Under the pieces are notes generated by a model that was not told the origin of the DNA, did no database searches, and worked only from the letters and a program-made list of their open reading frames with translations. A stretch of DNA of 64,000 nucleotides from Chloroflexota bacterium (GTDB lineage Bacteria > Chloroflexota > Limnocylindria > Limnocylindrales > CSP1-4), in the NCBI GenBank assembly GCA_046328155.1, contig JAXLXC010000001.1, positions 133,222 through 197,221 on the forward strand, written 5' to 3'. Each line of letters begins with the position of its first letter. The stretch's first letter is position 1. Positions 7,346 through 61,303 of the stretch are shown here, piece by piece. The position numbers were made by a program, and so were the translations under genes.

Positions 7346-7420
7346 GCCGACATAGCTCAGCGGTAGAGCAGCTGTTTCGTAAACAGCAGGTCCTCGGTTC
7401 AAATCCGAGTGTCGGCTCCA
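7346..7420 (+). tRNA. tRNA-Thr (anticodon CGU), CCA encoded
   Basis: Hand-folded cloverleaf. Acceptor stem GCCGACA/TGTCGGC, D stem GCTC/GAGC, anticodon stem GCTGT/ACAGC with loop TTCGTAA, T arm CTCGG-TTCAAAT-CCGAG, discriminator T followed by CCA. Confidence 0.9.
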
Positions 7421-7421
7421 C
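7384..7421 (+). repeat. direct repeat copy 1 (attL-like), equal to the 3' half of tRNA-Thr
   Basis: cagcaggtcctcggttcaaatccgagtgtcggctccac. Thirty nt are identical to 10849-10878, plus 7 more nt after a 1-nt indel. Confidence 0.85.
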
Positions 7422-7816
7422 CTTTCCCCGCACGAGATGGTGCCTCCTGGCACCACTGGGCCCGCGGCAGCAATGACCGGTAGCAGTCGGCGTACAGTGG
7501 CGCGCAAGCGCGATGGCCCCGAGGCTCTCACCCCGAGGCCACAAGGTCGCGCTCCTGTCTGGCGCAAGACGCCCAGCGCCCCCCAGATCGGCAAGGCGGT
7601 CGCGGACGCGTCGGGCACGGGACCGAAGGGCGACGGGGACCGCGAGCTGACGCGGGTGATGCGGCACCTGTCGCAGGTCGACAGCCACGAGGGGAACGAG
7701 CGCCTGTTCGGACGGTCGTCCGACAGGCTGGCGCGGCAAGTGCGCGACGCGCTCGGGACCAGGTGAAGGCGGTCGGCGGTCGGTCCGCGAGCACTGGTCT
7801 CTGAGAGGCGACGAGA

Positions 7817-8161
7817 TCATGGGCTCGCAAGAAGTCCTTCGACCATCATCACCGAGCTGGGATCATCGGACGTCCCCTTCAAGCAGGCATTCGAAACGTG
7901 GTCCCCTGCACGCATCCTGACTCTGCCTCGATCATCGAGAATCTCGAGCGAGGGTGCGAACCGTGCAGACCAGCCGGAAGGCCAGAGGAGCGGTGTCTGG
8001 TCTCCGGAGTCGTGGACGAGCCAGGCGATCCGGGGGTCCCCTGCGGCGCCGGCCAAGGTGGCTTCCACTGCAACCCCGCGACATCGCTCAGGGAACTCCG
8101 CGGCCGGCAGTGGACGCGCTGTCTGTGCGCCGCACCCGATCAGAAGCGCGGCGACCAGCAT
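7817..8161 (-). CDS. small putative lipoprotein
   Basis: An internal ATG at 8161 gives MLVAALLIGCGAQT..., with the lipobox LIGC. It is 114 aa and lies 62 bp downstream of the protease gene on the same strand. The longer track ORF (to 8401) has an Arg-rich, non-coding-looking N-terminus. Confidence 0.5.
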   Translation of the reverse strand: MLVAALLIGCGAQTARPLPAAEFPERCRGVAVEATLAGAAGDPRIAWLVHDSGDQTPLLWPSGWSARFAPSLEILDDRGRVRMRAGDHVSNACLKGTSDDPSSVMMVEGLLASP

Positions 8162-8223
8162 GATCGGCCACGCCGGCCCACGGCTCAAGGGATGGGCCCC
8201 CGGTCCCGGATCCGACGTCCGTT

Positions 8224-9480
8224 CTACTGGGTCACCACGGTCGCGTCGTAGGTGTTGAGTACGGTCTGGCGCTTGTGATCCCACGCGTAGCAGTGTTGCG
8301 CGTCGCCTCCCCGAGCGATGACGATGCCGCGGGCGCTGACGCCGCCGGACACCTCCCGGTGCACCCCGCCCCCGGAGTCGCCGCCCGAGCCCATGCTGCA
8401 ATTCGGACCCTGGGGAGCCTCCGTGAACGCGAGGCTGTTCGTGCAGCCCGACTCGTCGCAGAACTGCTCACTGAGCGAGTCGTAGGCGTAGCACACACGT
8501 AGGGTCGTGGCGCCGAACTGGCAGTAGACCACGCCCGTCGTGGGGTTCGCCGATCCGGTGACGGCCTTCGTCGTCGTCTGGTCATTCCACGCATACGACC
8601 GTGCGTTATACGCAGCTCCGTCGATGAGGACCAGATCGGGGTTCGGGAATCGTACGCCCTCGGTCGTACCGACCTGCTCGCTGTCGTTCCCGTTCCAGAC
8701 CGTGCGACCGTTGTTCCCGTTCGAGCAGTGGCCGGCAGTGACCATCACCGTTCCGTTCGTGTTGCTGTCGATGTAGAAACCCGTGGTGCAACCAGCATTG
8801 CCGATGTGGATGCGAGCGCCGCCACGGAACGGCGATGAATCACTGGTCCTGCTGGAGCGCGTGGCGTCGCCTCGCTCGTTCTTCCGGAGACGGAGGGTCT
8901 CGTCACGCCGGGCGTCGGCGACGTAATCCGAAGGCCGTCGGACGGACGCCGCGGCCTCCAGAGCGCGAACCACATCCTGCGTGTCGAAGGTCGCGTGGAC
9001 AATCACCGCGTCGCTGAGCGCGTCATACCCGGCGGAGGCGAAATCCCCGGGACCGTAGTTGAACGTGCGAAGTGCTTGCGATGCTGCGTCGATCACATCC
9101 TGGCCCACGCAACTGGGCGCGGCACGCACGTCCGACCCGGCGAGCCGCTCTCGCCAGGCCGCGAGGAATCGATCATCGACGACGACCGTGACGTCACGGC
9201 CGTCGAATACCACCGCCCGGAATCCGTCAGTCGCCTCGTACTTCGCCTGATGCGCCTCGAGTACGTCAGCTGCGGCGCCATCGAGGTTCGTTAGCACACG
9301 CTCGACAGACCCAGGGCAACTGGTCCGGTGGGAGACCTCCTCAGTCGTAAGCGCTGATGCACGTTCGCCCGCCGATGACGCAGCCCCCGGGACCCCGGTC
9401 GAAGCGGCAGCGACGAGGGCGGCTATGGGCAGGACCACAGTCACCCAGCGAATCGTCCGTGGTGCGAGGAGATGGGACAT
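8224..9480 (-). CDS. secreted S1 (chymotrypsin-fold, alpha-lytic/streptogrisin-like) serine protease with N-terminal pro-region
   Basis: Start at the ATG at 9480, preceded by GGAGG. Signal peptide MSHLLAPRTIRWVTVVLPIAALVAAAS. Catalytic motifs are TAGHC (His) and GDSGGG (Ser). The multiple Cys pairs are typical of S1E enzymes. Confidence 0.85.
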   Translation of the reverse strand: MSHLLAPRTIRWVTVVLPIAALVAAASTGVPGAASSAGERASALTTEEVSHRTSCPGSVERVLTNLDGAAADVLEAHQAKYEATDGFRAVVFDGRDVTVVVDDRFLAAWRERLAGSDVRAAPSCVGQDVIDAASQALRTFNYGPGDFASAGYDALSDAVIVHATFDTQDVVRALEAAASVRRPSDYVADARRDETLRLRKNERGDATRSSRTSDSSPFRGGARIHIGNAGCTTGFYIDSNTNGTVMVTAGHCSNGNNGRTVWNGNDSEQVGTTEGVRFPNPDLVLIDGAAYNARSYAWNDQTTTKAVTGSANPTTGVVYCQFGATTLRVCYAYDSLSEQFCDESGCTNSLAFTEAPQGPNCSMGSGGDSGGGVHREVSGGVSARGIVIARGGDAQHCYAWDHKRQTVLNTYDATVVTQ

Positions 9481-9626
9481 CACCAGCCTCCAATCCTGAC
9501 CTGCCGACGTGACTGGGCCGAACACCCCCGATCCCAGTCAACCAAGCAGCCGTCCAGTACGACGCGCGGACTCTCCTCGATGTTGCATCAGTCTGTCACC
9601 TCGCACCATGCGGTCGCGCTGAGGAC

Positions 9627-9770
9627 GTGGCGGGGCCTCGGCGCCGGCCGCGCTCGCGGTTCCACGATCTTCGGCATGCCGCCGCGACGTTCGTCCTGGC
9701 GCACGGCATGACGCTCGAGGACGTCAAACAGCTCCTCGCCCACGGCTCGCAAGGCAGCCGTGGGCGATGC
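9627..9770 (+). pseudogene. tyrosine recombinase/integrase C-terminal fragment
   Basis: Contains RFHDLRHAAATFVLAHGMTLEDVKQLLAHGS, which matches the conserved HxLRH...LGH box II region of phage-type integrases. No N-terminal or catalytic-Tyr part is present in frame. Confidence 0.5.
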
Positions 9771-10213
9771 GGGGGTCGAGTTGGTGCTGCGGCAGGCGGT
9801 GACATCAACGTTCGCTGGTCCCTCTGACCCGCGCCGCGACCGCGAGTTGTTATATGACACTCTGGTCCATCGGGTGCAGGGCGATGAGATCGACCTAAGG
9901 GCGGCCGACGCAGAGCTCGCGCGCTTGGCTGCTAGGGCGACCGCCTGGGTCGCGGAGTGGGCGATCCGATGGGCCGGCGCAGACGTGCACCCTGGTGGCG
10001 GGTGAACGCCCGCCCTCGATGATGCCGCCCGCGTGGTCGTCGAGGCCGTCGCCGATGTCCCGACGGGCGAGACGTTCGAGGCTGTGCTGGGGGTCATCGA
10101 CCCCGAGTCGGTGCCCTGGCTCGAGCGGGCCTACGCCGAGCTGGCGCCGGTGCAGGAGCCCGACGGCTACAGCGTGGCGCTCGCAGCGGCGTAGGCTTGA
10201 CACATGGTCTTGA

Positions 10214-10555
10214 GTGCGGGCGCCATCGGGCTCACTAGGCAACGTGCCCGCACTCGAGGCCTGTGGGGTTCATCTGCGATACGGTCGGCGAGGGTCTGCT
10301 GCGCTCTGCGAGTTCGCGATGGCCGCGCCACGGGGCTCAATCACCGCCCTCGTCGGGCCGAACGGTGCCGGCAAGTCGTCGCTCCTGAGATCGTTCGTTG
10401 GTTTCGAGCACCCGCAGCAGGGCGTGCTGCGGGTGCTGGGCCACGGTGTCCGGGCAGAGCGAGCCCCGGCACTCGCGAGTGTCGGCTACCTTGCCCAGGA
10501 TTCGCAGCTGTACCACGGCCTCACCGTGGCGCGTCACGTCGACCTCATGGAGCCT
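10214..10555 (+). pseudogene. ABC transporter ATP-binding protein, N-terminal fragment only
   Basis: Walker A (LVGPNGAGKSSLL) and the Q-loop region (YLAQDSQLY) are present. The signature motif, Walker B and H-loop are absent. The reading frame runs directly into unrelated sequence. Confidence 0.6.
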
Positions 10556-10585
10556 CCGAACGGGCTTCGACCGCGCCGACGCACT

Positions 10586-10845
10586 GTCGACACTCGAGTG
10601 GATGCGAAGACCGACCCCCGGGGCATCGTGACCACCTACGAGTACGATGGCTTGGGGAGCCAGACGCGCGTCATCCTCAACGATGTCGCTGGCTCCTCGT
10701 CCGAGGGCGACGAGGACCTGAGCGAGCGGACCTGGTATGACACCATCGGGTATGTGGCCGCGACCGAGGACCCGCGCGGCACGGTCACCCGGCACATCAC
10801 CGACGTGCTCGGCCGCGAGACCAAGACGATCCAGCAGGCCTCGGT
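10586..10845 (+). pseudogene. RHS/YD-repeat protein internal fragment
   Basis: YD repeats DPRGIVTTYEYDGLGSQTRV and YDTIGYVAATEDPRGTVTRHITDVLGRETKT. It lies in the same ORF as the ABC fragment and ends at the att-like repeat. Confidence 0.6.
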
Positions 10846-10878
10846 TCAAATCCGAGTGTCGGCTCCACAACCCCGTCG
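10842..10878 (+). repeat. direct repeat copy 2 (attR-like), a partial duplicate of the tRNA-Thr 3' half
   Basis: cagcaggcctcggttcaaatccgagtgtcggctccac. It lacks the tRNA 5' half, so it is not a second tRNA gene. Confidence 0.85.
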
Positions 10879-10981
10879 CCGCCTCCGAGCTGCCGAGCAC
10901 GGCACATGGATGTCCTCGCCAAGATGCCGCCCGCATCGGCGACACATGCGCCAGCGTGACGTGCTCACGCCCTTGGCGCTG

Positions 10982-11018
10982 AGTCTAATGACTCTTAGAC
11001 TAATCTGATTTAGACTAA
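10982..11018. promoter_or_regulatory. AT-rich repeat cluster upstream of the first ATPase gene
   Basis: AGTCTAA-N6-TTAGACT inverted repeat (10982-11001) plus a second TTAGACTAA copy at 11010-11018. Roughly 35% GC in a ~70% GC genome. Confidence 0.45.
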
Positions 11019-11024
11019 CACCCC

Positions 11025-12569
11025 ATGGATCAGCAGGACCTCGGTCTGGTCGACGTCGACCAGACCATCATGCGAATCGCCGAGGCGCATCCGGACCGGG
11101 TCCGCCTGGAGGAGACCACGCCCCTCCGTCGCCGATTCATCGATCGGCATGTCGAGCAAGCGGTCCTTGCCGACGCATGGAACTCTGGTCGGGCCGAGCT
11201 CGTCCACCTGCATGGTCGTCGTCGTGTGGGCAAGAGCGCGCTCCTGGGCCGGTTCGCCGAAGGACGCCATATCGCCTACTACGTGGCAGCGCAGCAGCTT
11301 GAGGCCGCACAGCTCACGGACCTGGGCGAGGTGCTCGGGCCGCTCTCCACCGGGTTCCGGCCCGGCCGGCCGCCGCGGCTCGCGATCCGGGACTGGGCCG
11401 AGCTGCTCGACGTCCTCACCGATGCCGCGCGCCGGAGCAGGGTCGGCCTCATCCTCGACGAGTTCCCGTACCTCATCGAGGCGAACGAGAGCCTCCCATC
11501 GCTCATCCAGCGTTGGTGGGACCGCGTTGGCTCCAAAGCCGATCTCGTCCTGGTCCTCGCGGGCTCCCATCAGGCCATGATGCGAAGCCTGCTCGATCCG
11601 GACGGCGCCCTCCATGGCAGGCCCACCCGTCGACTCGAGGTTCGACCCCTCGATTACTTCCACGCGGGCAGGTTCATGGCCCGGTGGTCGCCGGAGGACC
11701 GCGTGCGCGCATACGCCGTTGCTGGAGGGATGCCGGCGTACCTCGAGCGCTTCGACGACCGGCACCCCTTCCGCTACGAGCTGTACCGGGTCGCGTACTC
11801 GCCGGACGGACGCCTGTTCCAGGAGGCACCAGAGCTGCTCAGCCGGGAGTTCACCGAGCCACGGACCTATGAGTCCGTGCTCCGGGCCATCGCGAGCGGC
11901 TACGTGACCCCGAGCGAGATCGCCCAACAGGCGGGCCTCTCGGGCGCGAACCGGGTCGGGCCGTACATCGACCGGCTCATCCAGCTCGGCATGGTGCGCA
12001 GGGTCACGCTCCCGTCCGAAGCACAGGAGGTGCGCCCGCGAATCAGCCGATACGTCCTCGCCGATCAGTATCTGCGCTTCTACTTCGCCCTGGTCGACCC
12101 ATGGCGGAGCGCCATCCAGCAGGGCCGAGGCGGGCCAGTCCTCGACCACCTCTGGCCGGAAGCATTCGACCAGTTCGTGAGCCGGGCGTTCGAGGACGTC
12201 GCCGTGCAGTATCTGCTGCGCCTCAGCGGAGCGCAGGAGCTGCCGCCCGTGTCGTCGTCCGGTCCATGGTGGTTCACGGGGGGCGGCGACATCGATGCCG
12301 TGACGATGACTGGCAACGTCATGACCGCGGCAGCCGAGGCCAAGTGGACCACCGAGTACCTCAAGCCCGGCGACCTGGCGGAGCTTCGGACGAACGTCGC
12401 CAGAGCGCAACGAGGGGCGACGCCACGACTCTTCGGGTTCTCGCGGTCGGGCTTCGACCGTCATCTCCGCGATGAGACCGACCTCACGCAGGTCAAGCTC
12501 CGAGACCTGTACCGTGCTGACCTCGACTACGAGCGACGCACGGACGCCTGGTTGACCGCACGGCCGTAG
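11025..12569 (+). CDS. AAA+ ATPase (archaeal-ATPase/PF01637-like), wHTH and DUF234 (PD-(D/E)xK-like) protein
   Basis: 514-aa ORF, with an alternative start at 11070. Walker A HGRRRVGKSALL, Walker B GLILDEFPYL, wHTH TPSEIAQQAGLSGANRVGPYIDRLIQLGMV. The C-terminal GDIDAV-x11-AEAKW fits a D...ExK nuclease motif. Confidence 0.85.
   Translation: MDQQDLGLVDVDQTIMRIAEAHPDRVRLEETTPLRRRFIDRHVEQAVLADAWNSGRAELVHLHGRRRVGKSALLGRFAEGRHIAYYVAAQQLEAAQLTDLGEVLGPLSTGFRPGRPPRLAIRDWAELLDVLTDAARRSRVGLILDEFPYLIEANESLPSLIQRWWDRVGSKADLVLVLAGSHQAMMRSLLDPDGALHGRPTRRLEVRPLDYFHAGRFMARWSPEDRVRAYAVAGGMPAYLERFDDRHPFRYELYRVAYSPDGRLFQEAPELLSREFTEPRTYESVLRAIASGYVTPSEIAQQAGLSGANRVGPYIDRLIQLGMVRRVTLPSEAQEVRPRISRYVLADQYLRFYFALVDPWRSAIQQGRGGPVLDHLWPEAFDQFVSRAFEDVAVQYLLRLSGAQELPPVSSSGPWWFTGGGDIDAVTMTGNVMTAAAEAKWTTEYLKPGDLAELRTNVARAQRGATPRLFGFSRSGFDRHLRDETDLTQVKLRDLYRADLDYERRTDAWLTARP
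11043..11066. promoter_or_regulatory. perfect 24-bp palindrome GGTCTGGTCGACGTCGACCAGACC
   Basis: Read directly from the sequence. It lies between the annotated ATG (11025) and an in-frame ATG at 11070, so it is either an operator/5'-UTR hairpin or is encoded in the first 15 codons. Confidence 0.5.
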
Positions 12570-12572
12570 GCG

Positions 12573-14036
12573 TCAGGACCCGGTGTAGATGCGCGCGAGG
12601 TCGACGAGTTCGAGGTCCGGGCGACCGGCCGCCTCGGCGACGAGGTCGGGCGAGAAGCCGGAGCGACCGAAGAGGATCAAGCGGGCCCTCGCCGCATCGC
12701 ACCGCCCCGCGAGAAGCGTTCTGCTCTTCTCGAGCTTCTTGAGGTCACCTGTCGTCCGCTTGGCACTGCCACCCTTGGCCTCGCCGACGGCGAGCACCTT
12801 GGGACGCTTCGCGTTGGGGTTGCCCTCGACGGCCACCACGTCAAGCTCGGCCATGCTCCTGGCTGCGGCGTCATTGATCTGGGTCGATCCGACGACCGAC
12901 GGGCGACCGCCCAGAGTCGTCTCGCCCGCGAACTGGCGGGTCCAGATCCGGGCCATCTCCTCGAAGTGCGGTCCGAGCACAGAGGACTCGAAGGTCGCTC
13001 GCGCGTCGGCCCATGCCTCGGCAGTGCGTCGGTCCTCGAAGCGGGCGAGGTCTCGCCGGACGACGGCGAAGTGGAACCGAAGATAGGGGTCCACCAGCCG
13101 CACGACAGGGCGCTTCGCCCGCCAGAGGTCGTCGTCGCGTCTGATGAACGAGGCGTCCTCGAGCACCTTGAGCGGGTAGCGCAGCGCCGAGTCGTCGCGG
13201 GCAAGCACCTTGCCGATGCCTGTGCGGGTGGTGTTTCCCTCCGCAATCGCCGCGAGCACGGACTGATAGAGTGCGCGGTCCGTGATGGCCGGGTCCTCCG
13301 TGAGGACGTAGTCCGCCTCCCGGAACAGGGCGCTCGAGGGATCGAGCATCCCCTCGATGAGCCACGTCTCGAACTCATCTGGTGTCTGCGGCGCAGCATC
13401 CGAGAGAAGCGGCCGATAGCCTGGGGTGCCTCCAAGGACCGCGTTGACGAGGAATGCCGTCCCGGGATCCGTGATGCCCCAGTAGTCGGCTGCCTGTCGG
13501 AAGTCGAACGGGGCCATGAGGGTGTCGAGGCTGACACGGCCCCGCAGGGCCTTCTGGCCCGAGAGCAGATCGGTCATGACCGAAAGTGCCGAACCGCACA
13601 GCACCAGGCGGAAGGGTGGGCCGGCAGCCGAACGCGCAGCGTCGAACGCGGCCTGGATGACGGAGGGCAGTTCGGGCGACTTGGCGATCAGGTAGGGGAA
13701 CTCGTCAAGGACGACCAGACGGTCGGGACCGGCGCGCCGGATCAACTCGTCGAATGCCGCGACCCAGTCGGGGTATGTGATCGTGCCGGAGACTCCGGCA
13801 TCGGCCGCGATCAGACGGCCGATCCGGGTGAGGGCCGGCTCACGCTCCTCCTCGAGCGCCTGGTGATAGAGGCCCCCTGTCAGGGTGGAGAAGGAGCGCA
13901 GGACATATGACTTGCCTTGACGCCGGCGTCCGTAGACGAGACCGATCGCGGGCGCTGGCCGCCGAATGAAGGTCTCCAGGTCCGCCCACTCCCGGTCGCG
14001 GTCGAAGAGGATGTCGGGCTTCATCTCACGAACCAT
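12573..14036 (-). CDS. AAA+ ATPase, wHTH and DUF234 (PD-(D/E)xK-like) protein, paralogue of 11025..12569
   Basis: The real start is at the ATG at 14036 or 14024 (MVREMKPDILFDRDREW...). The upstream 117 codons of the track ORF are Arg-rich junk. Walker A YGRRRQGKSYVL, Walker B LVVLDEFPYL. C-terminal ELDVVAV-x14-VGEAKG. Confidence 0.85.
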   Translation of the reverse strand: MVREMKPDILFDRDREWADLETFIRRPAPAIGLVYGRRRQGKSYVLRSFSTLTGGLYHQALEEEREPALTRIGRLIAADAGVSGTITYPDWVAAFDELIRRAGPDRLVVLDEFPYLIAKSPELPSVIQAAFDAARSAAGPPFRLVLCGSALSVMTDLLSGQKALRGRVSLDTLMAPFDFRQAADYWGITDPGTAFLVNAVLGGTPGYRPLLSDAAPQTPDEFETWLIEGMLDPSSALFREADYVLTEDPAITDRALYQSVLAAIAEGNTTRTGIGKVLARDDSALRYPLKVLEDASFIRRDDDLWRAKRPVVRLVDPYLRFHFAVVRRDLARFEDRRTAEAWADARATFESSVLGPHFEEMARIWTRQFAGETTLGGRPSVVGSTQINDAAARSMAELDVVAVEGNPNAKRPKVLAVGEAKGGSAKRTTGDLKKLEKSRTLLAGRCDAARARLILFGRSGFSPDLVAEAAGRPDLELVDLARIYTGS

Positions 14037-14043
14037 GATAAGG

Positions 14044-14073
14044 GTAAGTCGACTTACGGTAAGTCGAGTTACC
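14044..14073. promoter_or_regulatory. tandem palindromes GTAAGTCGACTTAC and GGTAAGTCGAGTTACC just upstream of the second ATPase gene
   Basis: Read directly, 8-37 bp upstream of the ATG at 14036, in a locally AT-richer segment. Confidence 0.5.
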
Positions 14074-14149
14074 CCTCCCGGCGCGTCTCGGCGACGGCAC
14101 CGATTCGGAGATCGCCGCCGCCACGCCTCGCACGGCGCCGTGGCACCTA

Positions 14150-14321
14150 TCGCGAGGCGGCCCGTCCATCGGGGAGAACCCTCGCCACGAGTCGGGCGGC
14201 CACGATCCGGGTGGCGACGCACGGTCGCCGTAGCGTCCCAGGCCCGGGGTGGCTGGCCGAGCCGTTCACCCAGTGGGTCATCGAGGACCGCTGCCCGCAA
14301 GCCCGCCCGCCGCGGGCGTGA
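14150..14321 (+). pseudogene. possible mannitol-dehydrogenase-family remnant
   Basis: The only support is the short, characteristic stretch LAEPFTQWVIEDR. There is no start and no N-terminal domain, and the region is overlapped by the 3' end of the opposite-strand gene. Confidence 0.3.
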
Positions 14322-26475: not shown

Positions 26476-28929
26476 ATGGTCACCACCCATCGCCCGCGGG
26501 GCGTCGCCGTCGAACGACGGGATGGCCGTGGCGCGAGCGCCCCCGAGACCGCGGCGACCATCGAGTCCATCGAGCGCCGCGTGCTGTGGCTCGCGGTGCG
26601 CATGATCCACGAGGCCAACCTCGTGCGCCCCAATCCGGACGGCCTCAAGGTGGGCGGCCACCAGGCGTCGTCCGCGTCGATGGTCTCCATCCTGAGCGCG
26701 CTGTACCTGCGCTGGCTGCGCCCGGACGACCTCGTCGCGGTCAAGCCCCACGCGAGCCCCGTCTATCACGCGCTGCGCTACCTCATGGGGGACCTCGACG
26801 CCACGTGGCTGCCTAAGCTGCGCGCCTTTGGCGGCCTCCAGTCCTACCCGTCGCGGACCAAGGACCCCGAGCGCGTGGACTTCTCGACCGGGTCGGTCGG
26901 ACTCGGTGCCGTGGCGCCCATGTTCGCGGCACTCGCCGACCAGTACCTGCGGGCGCATCTCGCCGCGGACGCGGCCGCCTGGCCGGACCGGCGGTTCGTC
27001 GCCACCGTGGGCGACGCGGAGCTGGACGAGGGCAACGTCTGGGAGGCGCTCCTGGAGGAGCCGCTCGCGGGTCTGGGCAACGTGACGCTGCTGGTCGACC
27101 TCAACCGACAGAGCCTCGACCGGGTGGTGCCCGGGATCCGGATCCGGCGACTCGCCCGGATGTTCGCGGCAGCCGGCTGGCAGGTGCTCGAGGCCAAGTA
27201 CGGCCAGCGGCTGGAGGCGGCGTTCGCGGGACCGGGCGGCGAGGCGCTGCGTCGGCGCATCGATGACATGCCCAACGAGGCATACCAGGCGCTCATCCGT
27301 CGCCCGGCCCCCGAGATCCGGGCACGCGTGGTCGATGGCGCCGACGTCGCCGACCGCGACGACCTGGCACGGGCGCTGCGGGACGTCGATGACGCGGACC
27401 TGCCCCGGCTGGTGGCCGACCTGGGAGGCCACGACACCGACGCCATCGTCCGGGCGCTCGACGAGGCCGACGCGGACCGGGCTCGCCCCAGCGTGATCTT
27501 CGGGTACACCATCAAGGGCTGGATGCTGCCCTTCGCGGGCGATCCGCTCAACCACTCGGCGATGCTCACGGCCGACCAGGTCGCGGCACTCGCCGGCACG
27601 CTCGGCGCGGACGCCGACGATCCGTGGGCGGCGTTCCCGGCGGGCTCCGCCGAGGCCCGGCTATGCGAGGGGCGCGGGCAGGCGCTGCGGCGGCGGAGCG
27701 CCAGCACCGCCCCCGGCACCGTCATCGCCCCGCCCGCCGACGTGGACGTGCGGATCGCGGCCACGACCTCCACGCAGCAGGTCCTGGGTGACGCCCTGGC
27801 CGCCCTCGCCCGGGTGGACGGCATCGGCGGCCGAATCGTCACCGCCTCGCCGGACGTGTCGGTGTCCACCAACCTGGGCGGCTGGATCAACCGCGTCGGT
27901 GTGTTCGCGCCCGAGGACACGCCGCACGTGGATGACGCGCCGCGGATCCTGCGCTGGCAGCCGGGCCCCTCGGGGCAGCACATCGAGCTGGGCATCAGCG
28001 AGATGGACCTGTTCATGTGGCTGTCGCAGTTCGGGCTGACCGCGGAGCTGTTCGGCGAGCCGCTCGTGCCGCTCGGCACGGTCTACGACCCATTCATCGC
28101 CCGGGGCCTGGACGCGCTCATCCATGCGCTCTACGTGGGGTCGCGCTTCATCCTCGTCGCGACGCCCTCGGGCGTGACGCTGGCCCCCGAGGGTGGCGCC
28201 CATCAGTCGAGCGTCACCCCGTCGCTGGGCATCGAGCTGCCCATGCTGCGTGCATGGGAGCCTGCCTTTGGCCAGGAGGCGGCCTGGTGCCTGCTCGAGG
28301 CGATCGGCGGTGTGGCGGACCGCTCGGCCGACGGGTTCTCCAGCTACCTGCGACTCACCACGCGGCCCGTCGACCAGAGCCTCGCATCACCGGCGCGCAG
28401 CCGCCTGGGCGACGCGACATACCGGCGCCACGTCCTCGCCGGGGGATATCGGCTGCTGGAGCCGGCCGAGCTGGCCGCGGAGCTGGGGGTGACGCTGCCA
28501 TCCGATGCGCCGGGCGTCAGCGTCGTGGCGATGGGGGCCGTGGTGCCCGAGGCGGTGGCGGCCGTGCGCGAGCTGGTCCGCGAGGAGATCGCCGCCAGCC
28601 TCGTGGTGGTGACCTCGCCCGAGCGGTTGCACGCGGAGCTGGCCGGACGACGCCTGGGCTCGCTGCGCGCCGGGGACGACCACAGCCTGCCCCATCTGGC
28701 CGAGCTGTTCCCCGGCGCCACGCGACGCCAGCCCCTGGTCACCGTGCTCGACGGCGCGTCGCACGCGCTCGACTTCCTGGGTGGTGCCTTCGGGGCCCCG
28801 GTCGTGCCGCTCGGCGTCGACCGCTTCGGTCAGTCCGGCACCATCGGCGACCTGTATGGCTACGCCGGGATCGATGCGCCGCACATCGTCGAGGCCGCCA
28901 TCCTGGCGACCGAGCTGGGCGCCAGCTAG
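26476..28929 (+). CDS. homodimeric-type 2-oxoacid dehydrogenase E1 / transketolase-like ThDP enzyme (AceE-like)
   Basis: Start at the ATG at 26476 (MVTTHRPRG...), 817 aa. AceE-like pattern IERRVLWLAVRMIHEANLVRPNPDGLKVGGHQASSASMVSILSALY. No E2 or E3 gene is adjacent. Confidence 0.8.
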   Translation: MVTTHRPRGVAVERRDGRGASAPETAATIESIERRVLWLAVRMIHEANLVRPNPDGLKVGGHQASSASMVSILSALYLRWLRPDDLVAVKPHASPVYHALRYLMGDLDATWLPKLRAFGGLQSYPSRTKDPERVDFSTGSVGLGAVAPMFAALADQYLRAHLAADAAAWPDRRFVATVGDAELDEGNVWEALLEEPLAGLGNVTLLVDLNRQSLDRVVPGIRIRRLARMFAAAGWQVLEAKYGQRLEAAFAGPGGEALRRRIDDMPNEAYQALIRRPAPEIRARVVDGADVADRDDLARALRDVDDADLPRLVADLGGHDTDAIVRALDEADADRARPSVIFGYTIKGWMLPFAGDPLNHSAMLTADQVAALAGTLGADADDPWAAFPAGSAEARLCEGRGQALRRRSASTAPGTVIAPPADVDVRIAATTSTQQVLGDALAALARVDGIGGRIVTASPDVSVSTNLGGWINRVGVFAPEDTPHVDDAPRILRWQPGPSGQHIELGISEMDLFMWLSQFGLTAELFGEPLVPLGTVYDPFIARGLDALIHALYVGSRFILVATPSGVTLAPEGGAHQSSVTPSLGIELPMLRAWEPAFGQEAAWCLLEAIGGVADRSADGFSSYLRLTTRPVDQSLASPARSRLGDATYRRHVLAGGYRLLEPAELAAELGVTLPSDAPGVSVVAMGAVVPEAVAAVRELVREEIAASLVVVTSPERLHAELAGRRLGSLRAGDDHSLPHLAELFPGATRRQPLVTVLDGASHALDFLGGAFGAPVVPLGVDRFGQSGTIGDLYGYAGIDAPHIVEAAILATELGAS

Positions 28930-28951
28930 CCACGACCTGCCCAGATCCCGG

Positions 28952-45785: not shown

Positions 45786-46851
45786 TCAGCGGGCGACCGG
45801 CTCGCCCGTCGGCTCGGGCTCGCTCCGCCTGGCGCGCAGCACGATCGACGTGAACGGCACGCGCACCTCCGCGAACGTCTCGGTGGACACCAGGAACCCG
45901 GCGAGGAGCAGGACCACCCCCGCGAGCTTGCCCACGCCGTAGTACTCGGTCGACCCGAACCGATTGAGGCTGTCCGTGATGGTCGGCACCAGCGCCCCGG
46001 CCGCGATGAGCAGGGTTGCCGGCACCCGGCTGTGGAGACGGCCCTGGAGCAGTGCCCGGAACGCGCCCGGCACCGACGCCACGAAGTTGACCGCGATGGC
46101 GACGGGCGAGATCAACAGCTGGAACAGGAACTGCTCGCCGGGCTGGTCGGGCTCCAGCGAGTGGTCCAGCACGCGGCGCTTGGGCATGAACACGTAGGCG
46201 CTGAACAGGGCGCCCAGGATGAGCGCGAACGCGCCCGTGACGTTCATGAATGGCGTCAGCAGCCGCAGCTGCCCGGGCAGCAGGGCCCCGGTCGGTGCCG
46301 CCGTCACCGGGTCGATGGCGTAGCCGGGCGCGGGGAATGGTGGTGCCCATCATCAGCACCAGCGACAGGAGCGTGGCGCCCACCACGGCGAGGGCCGCGA
46401 GGCGCGGCCAGCGCCAGTCGGCGAGCCAGGTCGCGGTGGCCACCGCGAACGCGAGTGCACCCGCGACCACGAGGTACACCAGGGGCACGATGCCCACGTC
46501 CGGGTACTCGGCGGGGAAGCGACGAGGCGTCAGGAACGTGAACAGGCCCGCGAGGAACAGGCCCAGCGCGAAGCCGTAGCCGAACCTGGTCCGTCCCAGC
46601 AGGAACGCGTTGCCGAGGCCCAGCCAGCCGGCGGTCCACACGGCGCCGGTCAGGTACCACGTCCGATACAGGGCCTCGTCCCAGCCCCACGCCGCCGCGA
46701 GCGCCTCGCAGCCGGAGGCCACCGCGAAGCAGGCCATGCCCACGAACCAGACCAGCTGGAACGTGCCGTGCCGATCGCGCCACTGCGCCAACAGGCCGGC
46801 GGCCATCAGCGCGGCCAGCAGCGAGGTGAGCGCCGGGATCAGGAGCGCCAT
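45786..46851 (-). pseudogene. polytopic membrane protein with one frame change
   Basis: The N-terminal 170 codons (MALLIPALTSLLAALMAAGLL...LVLMMGTTIP) and the C-terminal 173 codons (…TAAPTGALLPGQLRLLTPFMNVTGAFALILG...) are hydrophobic in two different frames, joining near 46320-46340. Length is 1066 nt. Confidence 0.6.
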
Positions 46852-61287: not shown

Positions 61288-61303
61288 TGCTAAACCGGTT
61301 TAG
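61288..61303. promoter_or_regulatory. perfect 16-bp palindrome GCTAAACCGGTTTAGC (LacI-type operator)
   Basis: Read directly, 80 bp upstream of the LacI start. It has the central CG and the AAAC/GTTT half-sites typical of LacI/GalR operators. Confidence 0.65.

Follow-up and report, generated by a model that had tools for sequence, protein, structure and literature searches.

PDC-S27-type ATPase–DUF234 genes beside a tRNA-Thr(CGT) gene in a Limnocylindrales genome and the operator-like arrays upstream of them

We analyzed a 64,000-nucleotide stretch of a Chloroflexota bacterium of the order Limnocylindrales (GenBank assembly GCA_046328155.1, contig JAXLXC010000001.1, positions 133,222 to 197,221), hereafter the window, in which two paralogous genes, A and B, converge next to a tRNA-Thr(CGT) gene. 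Each encodes an ATPase, a winged helix and a C-terminal domain resembling PD-(D/E)XK nucleases. An earlier note, made from the sequence alone, had presented them as a duplicated NTPase–nuclease module in a layout typical of defense or mobile-element conflict. Of that layout, the tRNA hot spot and the membership in a candidate-defense family stood up, whereas the pair as a module did not: A and B are independent cassettes of one gene each, and they abut by chance. On sequence comparison, both belong to the COG1672 family, which combines Pfam ATPase_2, a winged helix and DUF234 and which PADLOC lists as the candidate PDC-S27. The best explanation, and one we consider probable, is that two PDC-S27-type cassettes lie 3′ of tRNA-Thr(CGT), each with an operator bound by its own product, and that they act in genetic conflict. 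Recognizing the juxtaposition as chance removes a tempting false lead, and the conserved operator array makes an abundant family without demonstrated function directly testable.

A and B as separate cassettes

A and B lie tail to tail as described in the earlier note, their stop codons separated only by the trinucleotide gcg (12570–12572), and a comparison of the two products gave 30% identity across 467 residues (E 6e-27). Both are annotated as 'ATP-binding protein' in the protein database, with closest relatives in metagenome-assembled genomes (MAGs) of Candidatus Limnocylindrales. The frequency of the convergent arrangement was surveyed in 80 genome loci retrieved with an A-type alignment and 80 metagenome loci retrieved with a B-type alignment, together with 43 viral-contig loci and 14 contigs encoding specific homologues. 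Removal of duplicates left 204 non-redundant foreign loci, which were scanned by tblastn with A and B. None contained a tail-to-tail partner, including the 170 with at least 500 nucleotides of 3′ flank. A second family member was present in the fetched flanks at two of the 204 loci, in one case head to head at a distance of ~600 bp (L102:7971-11449; a B-type copy and a copy best matching A with 31% identity), in the other convergent and 2.4 kb apart (L163:11-5304; two B-type copies). A-type loci (L002–L004 and L010–L032, 58–78% identical) are singletons, as are B-type loci (41–90% identical, including L174) except L102 and L163. The sole other copy of the pair is an identical one on a 3.5-kb contig from a second sequencing run (L001).

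The closest B orthologue, in locus L174, shares 90% protein and 91% DNA identity and has no A alongside. Homology between this locus and the window is bounded sharply by the B stop codon (12573) and by a point 29 nucleotides upstream of the operator (14101), beyond which the flanks are unrelated; the neighbors in L174 are a small nucleotidyltransferase, a 178-residue open reading frame (ORF) and a Mrr-type endonuclease. The absence of tail-to-tail partners and these sharp cassette boundaries together establish the independence of A and B, and the proposed duplicated module had to be abandoned. An obligate two-gene system, in which the convergent paralogues would cooperate, for instance as hetero-oligomeric sensor and effector, and the pair would be kept by selection, is in our estimation very improbable. 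The 3-nucleotide spacing of the stop codons, the shared architecture, the independent assembly of the identical pair in L001 and the occurrence of two members within a few kilobases in L102 and L163 could all be cited for it, but these two loci differ in geometry from the window, the remaining A- and B-type loci hold single genes without a convergent partner, and A and B have separate promoters and operators with distinct half-sites.

Operator-like arrays and recognition helices

Each gene carries its own tandem pair of xTAA-N6-TTAx palindromes, with a 15-bp period, downstream of a −35-like hexamer and ahead of the start codon. Upstream of A, two tandem CTAA-N6-TTAG palindromes (10985–10998 and 11000–11013) follow a TTGGCG −35-like hexamer at 10973–10978; upstream of B, GTAA-N6-TTAC occurs twice with the same period, 18 nucleotides from the ATG at 14024. 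With the window shuffled, the expected number of matches was 0.00 for CTAA-N6-TTAG and GTAA-N6-TTAC alike. Homologous loci were scanned from −120 to +30 of the start codon for TAA-N6/7-TTA-N3-TAA-N6/7-TTA, allowing at most two mismatches in the 12 specified bases. The array was found in all 22 A-type orthologue loci (background, none over 272 kb of sequence from these loci), in 27 of 73 B-type loci (background, 2 matches in 603 kb) and in 28 of 57 relatives of 24–35% identity from other phyla, including Treponema, Fibrobacter and Sphaerochaeta (0.08 expected per 150 nucleotides). The doubled GTAA-N6-TTAC form recurs in B-type loci L005, L006, L008, L090–L094, L139, L173 and L174, and many of the remaining B-type loci have, by eye, a matching layout with other half-sites. 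Orthologous loci with unrelated flanks keep the array architecture, and in several of them a TTGAC-type −35 hexamer lies directly upstream, so that the array covers the region from promoter to ribosome-binding site. Both the TTAGACTAA repeats upstream of A and the tandem palindromes upstream of B, which the earlier note had singled out, are thus real and conserved.

The half-sites co-vary with the recognition helix of the encoded protein. Among A-type members, the helix GANR..PYL goes with the half-site TCTAA (22 loci tabulated), and T[TA]TAA accompanies helices of the form A[AST]A..PYL (L029, L032 and partly L025). Among B-type members, RD[DE]SALRHPL is paired with GGTAA, GRKSxDLAHPL with xATAA or TATAG, and DAR[GS]L or SDRAL with xCTAA. 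In both clades, CTAA half-sites come with an arginine in the first helical turn, and the helix arginine and the G:C pair of the half-site disappear together. No consistently adjacent regulator gene was present in the neighborhoods of the examined homologue loci; the array travels with the gene. Because the array is conserved, co-varies with the recognition helix and has no conserved partner regulator, we infer that the protein's own winged helix probably binds the array and autoregulates its gene. The distinct half-sites (CTAA for A, GTAA for B) imply that the operators of A and B are orthogonal. Our literature searches found no earlier report of a self-associated operator array or of its co-variation with the recognition helix.

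The position of the start codons bears on a further symmetric element. The N-terminal 35 residues of A (MDQQDLGL...RIAEAHPDRVRLEE) are conserved as a peptide in six relatives, which identifies ATG 11025 as the true start and places the 24-bp perfect palindrome at 11043–11066 within the coding sequence (CDS). The start of B is most likely ATG 14024, which is also the NCBI start; locus L174, 91% identical, retains it and lacks the window's further upstream ATG (14036). Of the two A starts offered earlier, 11025 and 11070, the first therefore stands, and the B start at 14036 gives way to 14024. The 24-bp palindrome, which the earlier note had counted among the upstream elements of A, was rejected as an operator: it is intragenic, it is absent from the orthologous locus L171, its LVDVDQT peptide is not conserved in relatives and, although no perfect palindrome of the window is longer, stretches of at least 24 bp turned up in 5 of 100 shuffles. 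It is probably incidental. In L171 (L171:3140-3260; an A orthologue of 70% identity), a 7-bp inverted repeat, GGCCTCG...CGAGGCC, sits near the 5′ end of the CDS, roughly where the window has its palindrome, and a hairpin in the 5′ CDS might recur across A orthologues though its sequence does not.

A lone perfect 14-bp palindrome, CTAAACCGGTTTAG, at 61290–61303 has the same CTAA-N6-TTAG form as the A operator, for which no chance match was expected in the window. It is single rather than tandem and lies far from any family member.

Domain architecture and family membership

The predicted structures present A and B as ORC/Cdc6-like AAA+ ATPases with a lid and a winged helix. Pfam ATPase_2 (PF01637) matched A with 61.1 bits and B with 40.0 bits, both above the gathering threshold of 33.2. 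The Walker A (GRRRVGKS in A, GRRRQGKS in B) and Walker B (DEFPYL) motifs named in the earlier note are present and conserved: across 57 family sequences (26 A-type and 31 B-type), G64, G69, K70 and D145 are invariant and E146 is kept in 56. AlphaFold2 models, which rest on this 57-sequence alignment mixing both clades, reached a pLDDT (predicted local distance difference test) of 92.7 and a pTM (predicted template modeling score) of 0.90 for A, and 94.4 and 0.91 for B. In Foldseek searches of the PDB, the best match of both was 2qen (PABY2304; E 8.8e-13 for A, 1.3e-12 for B), followed for A by 2fna (SSO1545; E 3.4e-11), with further matches to Orc1/Cdc6, including DNA-bound complexes, RuvB, Apaf-1, plant NLRs, Avs4 and MalT. 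The alignments span the first ~365 residues, that is, ATPase, lid and winged helix, in line with the ORC-like ATPase and the central winged helix proposed before. Neither A nor B matched any NCBIfam family, and a full-length sequence search of the PDB returned only a weak AAA+ match, the transposition ATPase TnsC (E 2e-3).

The C-terminal domain of A and B is predicted to be a PD-(D/E)XK nuclease with intact catalytic residues. In both models, the last ~120 residues adopt the order alpha-beta-beta-beta-alpha-beta, and the D...ExK motifs recognized in the earlier note fall where they belong: in A, E390 is on helix 1, D422/D424 are at the start of strand 2 and E438-A-K440 is on strand 3; in B, the corresponding residues are E355, E393/D395 and E415-A-K417. 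B-type sequences (n = 31) keep E, D and E in every member and K in 30. In A-type sequences (n = 26), E390, D424 and K440 are invariant, and position 438 is Glu in 7, the window's A among them, Ser in 15 and Thr in 4. DUF234 (PF03008) matched residues 353–443 of A with 47 bits (gathering threshold 22.5). The C-terminal 175 residues of B had no Pfam match even at E up to 10, DUF234 included, yet hhalign aligned this domain with A-type DUF234 at 98.1% probability (E 8e-14), so that B is a divergent relative beyond the current model. Mrr_cat was matched in 2 of 15 members only, with E 0.04. DUF234 has been classified as PD-(D/E)XK family 76 (COG1672; Steczkiewicz et al. 2012, PMC3424549).

Two PADLOC hidden Markov models (HMMs) for PDC-S27 recognized both proteins (PDLC04984, E 1.5e-39 for A and 2.2e-18 for B; PDLC04985, 1.2e-12 and 4.6e-08). 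The label PDC stands for 'phage defence candidates', a prediction that rests on finding genes inside BREX, DISARM and type I restriction–modification (R-M) systems (Payne et al. 2024 preprint, doi 10.1101/2024.01.29.577857). In a 2026 census, which gives the PDC-S27 architecture as a fusion of ATPase and PD-(D/E)XK domain with validation pending, the candidate ranks among the most prevalent defense-type calls in prokaryotes: 3,503 were detected across 7,747 archaeal genomes and 4,562 across 40,000 bacterial ones (PMC12988326). The family and its candidacy for defense are therefore already known, and A and B are further members of it. Searches of the literature on DUF234, PF03008, PF01637, COG1672 and PDC-S27 yielded classification and census papers and no functional study. 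The earlier note was thus right that no function is established for ATPase/DUF234 proteins; its description of an uncharacterized NTPase–nuclease candidate holds for function, which is unproven, but not for cataloguing, given PMC3424549 and PDC-S27.

Comparison with better-known systems places A and B among several AAA+ lineages. They resemble PDC-S27 in that homologues lie inside type I R-M and DUF1156/DUF499 systems, the very criterion that defines such candidates; PDC-S27 is, however, a prediction without mechanism or validated phenotype, and A and B of the window lie outside any known system. The likeness to 2qen and 2fna, archaeal 'Walker-type' AAA+ proteins of the ATPase_2 family, extends over ~365 residues (E 1e-12 to 3e-11; target-normalized TM score 0.65–0.67), but these are proteins of ~350 residues, and the alignments stop before the C-terminal DUF234 domain. 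To our knowledge, their function is unknown as well. The matches of A to PDC-S01 HMMs are marginal (E 2e-4 or weaker); PDC-S01 may correspond to DUF1703. The DUF1703/PDDEXK_9 fusions (Knizewski et al. 2007, PMC1913061) join an ATPase_2-related AAA+ domain to a C-terminal PD-(D/E)XK domain, as A and B do, and have a similarly Arg-rich Walker A (RPRRFGKS; here GRRRVGKS), but their nuclease family is PDDEXK_9 and not DUF234. Orc1/Cdc6 proteins share the AAA+ domain and the C-terminal winged helix, with strong Foldseek matches that include the DNA-bound structures 2qby and 2v1u, and they too bind sequence-specific repeat arrays, the origin recognition boxes. They are, however, initiators without a nuclease domain, whereas A and B come from a bacterial family that is patchy in distribution and sometimes multi-copy; their arrays are located at the promoters of the genes themselves and not at an origin, with no replication context seen. 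Avs/STAND proteins (Avs4, PDB 8dgf, a Foldseek match) also couple an NTPase switch to a nuclease effector, and their oligomerization-gated nuclease offers an analogous mechanism. Avs proteins have a large C-terminal repeat sensor for phage proteins and an N-terminal effector, an order that is reversed in A and B; no TPR, WD40 or LRR domain was found by Pfam at the C-terminus of A or B, and the models end with the nuclease domain, leaving the winged helix as the sole candidate sensor.

Table 1 Features of the A/B locus and the adjoining tRNA island, in window coordinates
Feature	Position	Strand	Remarks
tRNA-Thr(CGT)	7346..7420	+	ARAGORN; integration target, attL side
Decayed integrated element	7421..10837		~3.4 kb, GC content 0.679; Pfam matches on fragments
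433-residue ORF	8224-9525	-	apparently intact, inside decayed island
Integrase C-terminal fragment	9627-9827		Pfam
ABC ATPase fragment	10214-10561		Pfam
RHS-repeat fragment	10562-10840		Pfam
attR-like boundary	10838..10867	+	exact 30-nucleotide direct repeat of tRNA-Thr 3′ end
A operator-like array	10980..11018	+	three 9-bp boxes, 15-bp period: TGAGTCTAA 10980-10988, TTAGACTAA 10995-11003, TTAGACTAA 11010-11018
Gene A	11025..12569	+	514 residues
24-bp perfect palindrome	11043..11066		GGTCTGGTCGACGTCGACCAGACC; inside A CDS, LVDVDQT codons
A ATPase, residues 38-242	11136-11750		Pfam
A winged helix, residues ~279-345	11859-12059		recognition helix from A308-N309-R310
A predicted PD-(D/E)XK/DUF234 domain, residues ~379-490	12159-12494		E390, D422, D424, E438, K440
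Gene B	12573..14024	-	483 residues; alternative ATG at 14036
B cassette shared with L174	12573..14101	-	L174:662-2189; blastn, 91% DNA identity
B ATPase, residues ~6-206	14009-13407		Pfam ATPase_2
B winged helix, residues ~250-310	13277-13095		recognition helix D278-S279-A280-L281-R282
B predicted PD-(D/E)XK domain, residues ~334-474	13025-12603		E355, E393, D395, E415, K417
B operator-like array	14043..14073	-	tandem GTAAGTCGACTTAC (14044-14057) and GTAAGTCGAGTTAC (14059-14072)

Genomic setting and competing explanations

A and B sit just outside a remnant bounded by tRNA-Thr(CGT) and an attR-like repeat of its 3′ end (Table 1); the 25-mer of this repeat occurs twice in the window against 0 expected. 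No third att repeat was found downstream of B within the window, so that A and B cannot be demonstrated as cargo of a bounded island. In a different MAG (L030:10001-11660), an A-type gene of 60% identity lies next to a matching tRNA: the tRNA-Thr(CGT) is identical at 75 of 75 bases, and the gene is 140 nucleotides from its 3′ end in the opposite orientation. Identical tRNA-Thr(CGT) genes beside A-type genes in two genomes indicate that the 3′ flank of this tRNA repeatedly collects such genes, in agreement with the integration hot spot suggested before. A tRNA lies within ~3 kb at ~5 of 23 A-type loci, a frequency that is suggestive only and that we do not treat as significant. An unrelated tRNA 3′-end-like fragment (GGGTTCAAGTCTCCCGCGGCGCCA) was seen ~60 nucleotides upstream of the A-type gene in L030. 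The surroundings had been described as almost entirely gene debris, which fits the integrase, ABC ATPase and RHS fragments but not the apparently intact 433-residue ORF at 8224-9525. This ORF had no Pfam match at E up to 0.01; its GGDSGGG stretch resembles the GDSGG active-site motif of trypsin-type serine proteases.

The neighborhoods of homologues bear out a defense context in part. In L173, a homologue separates hsdM-hsdS from hsdR within a type I R-M system. In L170:770-12760, the order is SNF2/DEAD/NOV_C helicase, MNT, HEPN, DUF1156 methylase, an A-type ATPase–DUF234 gene and HEPN_Swt1-DUF499, a cluster that looks like an R-M-like multi-gene defense system with an embedded family member. 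Others are found among MazE-PIN, PemK, BrnT, MNT-HEPN, NERD/UvrD, SLFN-helicase, PLD-DEAD-DUF3427, HNH and Mrr genes, more than one copy can occur in one MAG (L019 and L030), and 43 IMG/VR viral or proviral contigs (L175–L217) encode distant members, 21–29% identical to A, several of them near contig ends and hence possibly host flank rather than phage cargo. R-M, DUF1156/DUF499 and toxin–antitoxin (TA) neighbors thus speak for such a context, and the housekeeping-like settings of L002 and L006 and the unembedded pair of the window speak against it. In L003 and L004, the gene is kept at a syntenic position.

These observations fit a stepwise mechanism. The winged helix of each protein would bind its own array and repress its own promoter, and the orthogonal CTAA and GTAA operators would let the paralogues coexist without cross-talk. 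Like ORC/Cdc6 and STAND relatives, the ATP-bound protein might then oligomerize on DNA, which would license the nuclease to cut; this step is suggested by the fold. The genomic embedding of the family points to conflict with phages or other mobile DNA as the likely role. If the proteins do repress themselves, expression from constructs that include the native upstream region may be very low, and those lacking it may prove mis-regulated or toxic, which calls for caution in heterologous phage assays of PDC-S27 genes.

Several points weigh against self-bound operators and a conflict role. The co-variation of helix and half-site comprises few independent switches, and its counts ignore phylogeny. 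A simple sigma-70 consensus scan of 10800–14300 found no promoter, and the −35-like hexamer of B is degenerate relative to L174 (TTGCCA there, GCGCCG in the window), so that the B promoter may be weakened here; the 10 nucleotides holding TTGCCA in L174 differ at ~5 positions in the window (GCGCCGGGAG). For the C-terminal domain, whose strand and helix order and residues fit the PD-(D/E)XK fold expected from the earlier note, Foldseek with the full-length models returned ATPase and winged-helix matches only, with no nuclease superposed on the C-terminal fold, and searching the PDB with a sequence profile built from the domain gave no solved relative or significant match. The replacement of the ExK Glu by Ser or Thr in 19 of 26 A-type sequences means that nuclease activity may not be universal. 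The homologue in L002 lies beside aminotransferase, alcohol dehydrogenase (ADH) and hydrogenase genes, that in L006 lies inside a glycosyltransferase cluster, and the window's own A and B are outside any recognizable defense system. In a cold-seep preprint, the only published phage test found, one PDC-S27 representative cloned into E. coli B and challenged with T4, T5 and T7 was not among the four protective candidates (doi 10.1101/2024.09.26.614923). Low expression or mis-regulation of the construct could account for that result, if self-repression is true.

Much of this evidence could equally be read as describing DNA-binding AAA+ regulators or chromosome-maintenance factors, in which the nuclease-like domain would serve as an oligomerization or ligand-sensing module and the arrays would be the main targets. 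The strong conservation of the arrays at the genes' own promoters, the frequent loss of the ExK Glu in A-type relatives, the syntenic retention in L003 and L004, the housekeeping-like neighbors of some homologues and the negative phage test all agree with such a non-defense role. We nevertheless regard it as unlikely: within the window, array motifs occur at the genes' own promoters and at the lone 61290 site only, so that there is no sign of a regulon; both clades conserve E, D and K (the last in 30 of 31 B-type sequences), and the B-type keeps the full E-D-ExK set; and the distribution is patchy and sometimes multi-copy, with R-M embedding, TA neighbors and viral contigs. A somewhat more remote prospect is a selfish cassette, the unit from promoter to stop codon behaving as a homing-like or addiction-type nuclease whose array is the recognition site for insertion or maintenance. 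It would explain why the B unit is 91% identical in DNA to L174 between sharp boundaries (12573/14101) and unrelated flanks, and it agrees with the finding of such genes, oppositely oriented in two genomes, 3′ of an identical tRNA-Thr(CGT), the weak sequence similarity to TnsC and the presence of more than one copy in one MAG (L019, L030). Yet the array stands on the 5′ side only, no terminal inverted or direct repeats bracket the unit, no recombinase or transposase is consistently adjacent in the examined loci, and L003 and L004 show ordinary vertical synteny.

Self-bound cassettes with a conflict role, the explanation we prefer, may be extended tentatively to the whole family, though we hold this broader version to be rather less likely true than false. 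Across its many bacterial phyla, the family would then consist of self-contained units, from promoter to stop codon, whose AAA+ nuclease represses its own gene in a sequence-specific manner by binding, with the winged helix, the 15-bp-periodic xTAA-N6-TTAx array that overlies its promoter. The array could also act as a nucleation site at which an ATP-bound oligomer is kept inactive. Foreign DNA or a phage factor might release this array-held oligomer, the effector in effect sensing its own de-repression. Operator specificity would diversify together with the recognition helix, allowing several paralogues per genome without cross-talk.

The remaining observations concern the composition and surroundings of the locus. 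The guanine-plus-cytosine (GC) content of A (0.683) and B (0.678) is slightly lower than that of the whole window (0.718), in line with the earlier note, to which both genes looked less GC-rich than the core genes, and GC at third codon positions is 0.84 in both genes and 0.85–0.95 in neighboring genes. Their neighbors in the window are the island debris, a DUF4037 nucleotidyltransferase, a TetR regulator and an MBL-fold gene. A scan for intrinsic terminators gave no match in 10800–14300, including the junction between the convergent genes. Elsewhere, ARAGORN called an 88-nucleotide tRNA-Ala(GGC) at 28864–28951 on the minus strand, unusually long for tRNA-Ala, which could reflect an insertion or a false call. 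The second-longest perfect palindrome of the window, TCGCGGTGGCCACCGCGA, is 18 bp long and lies at 46431–46448.

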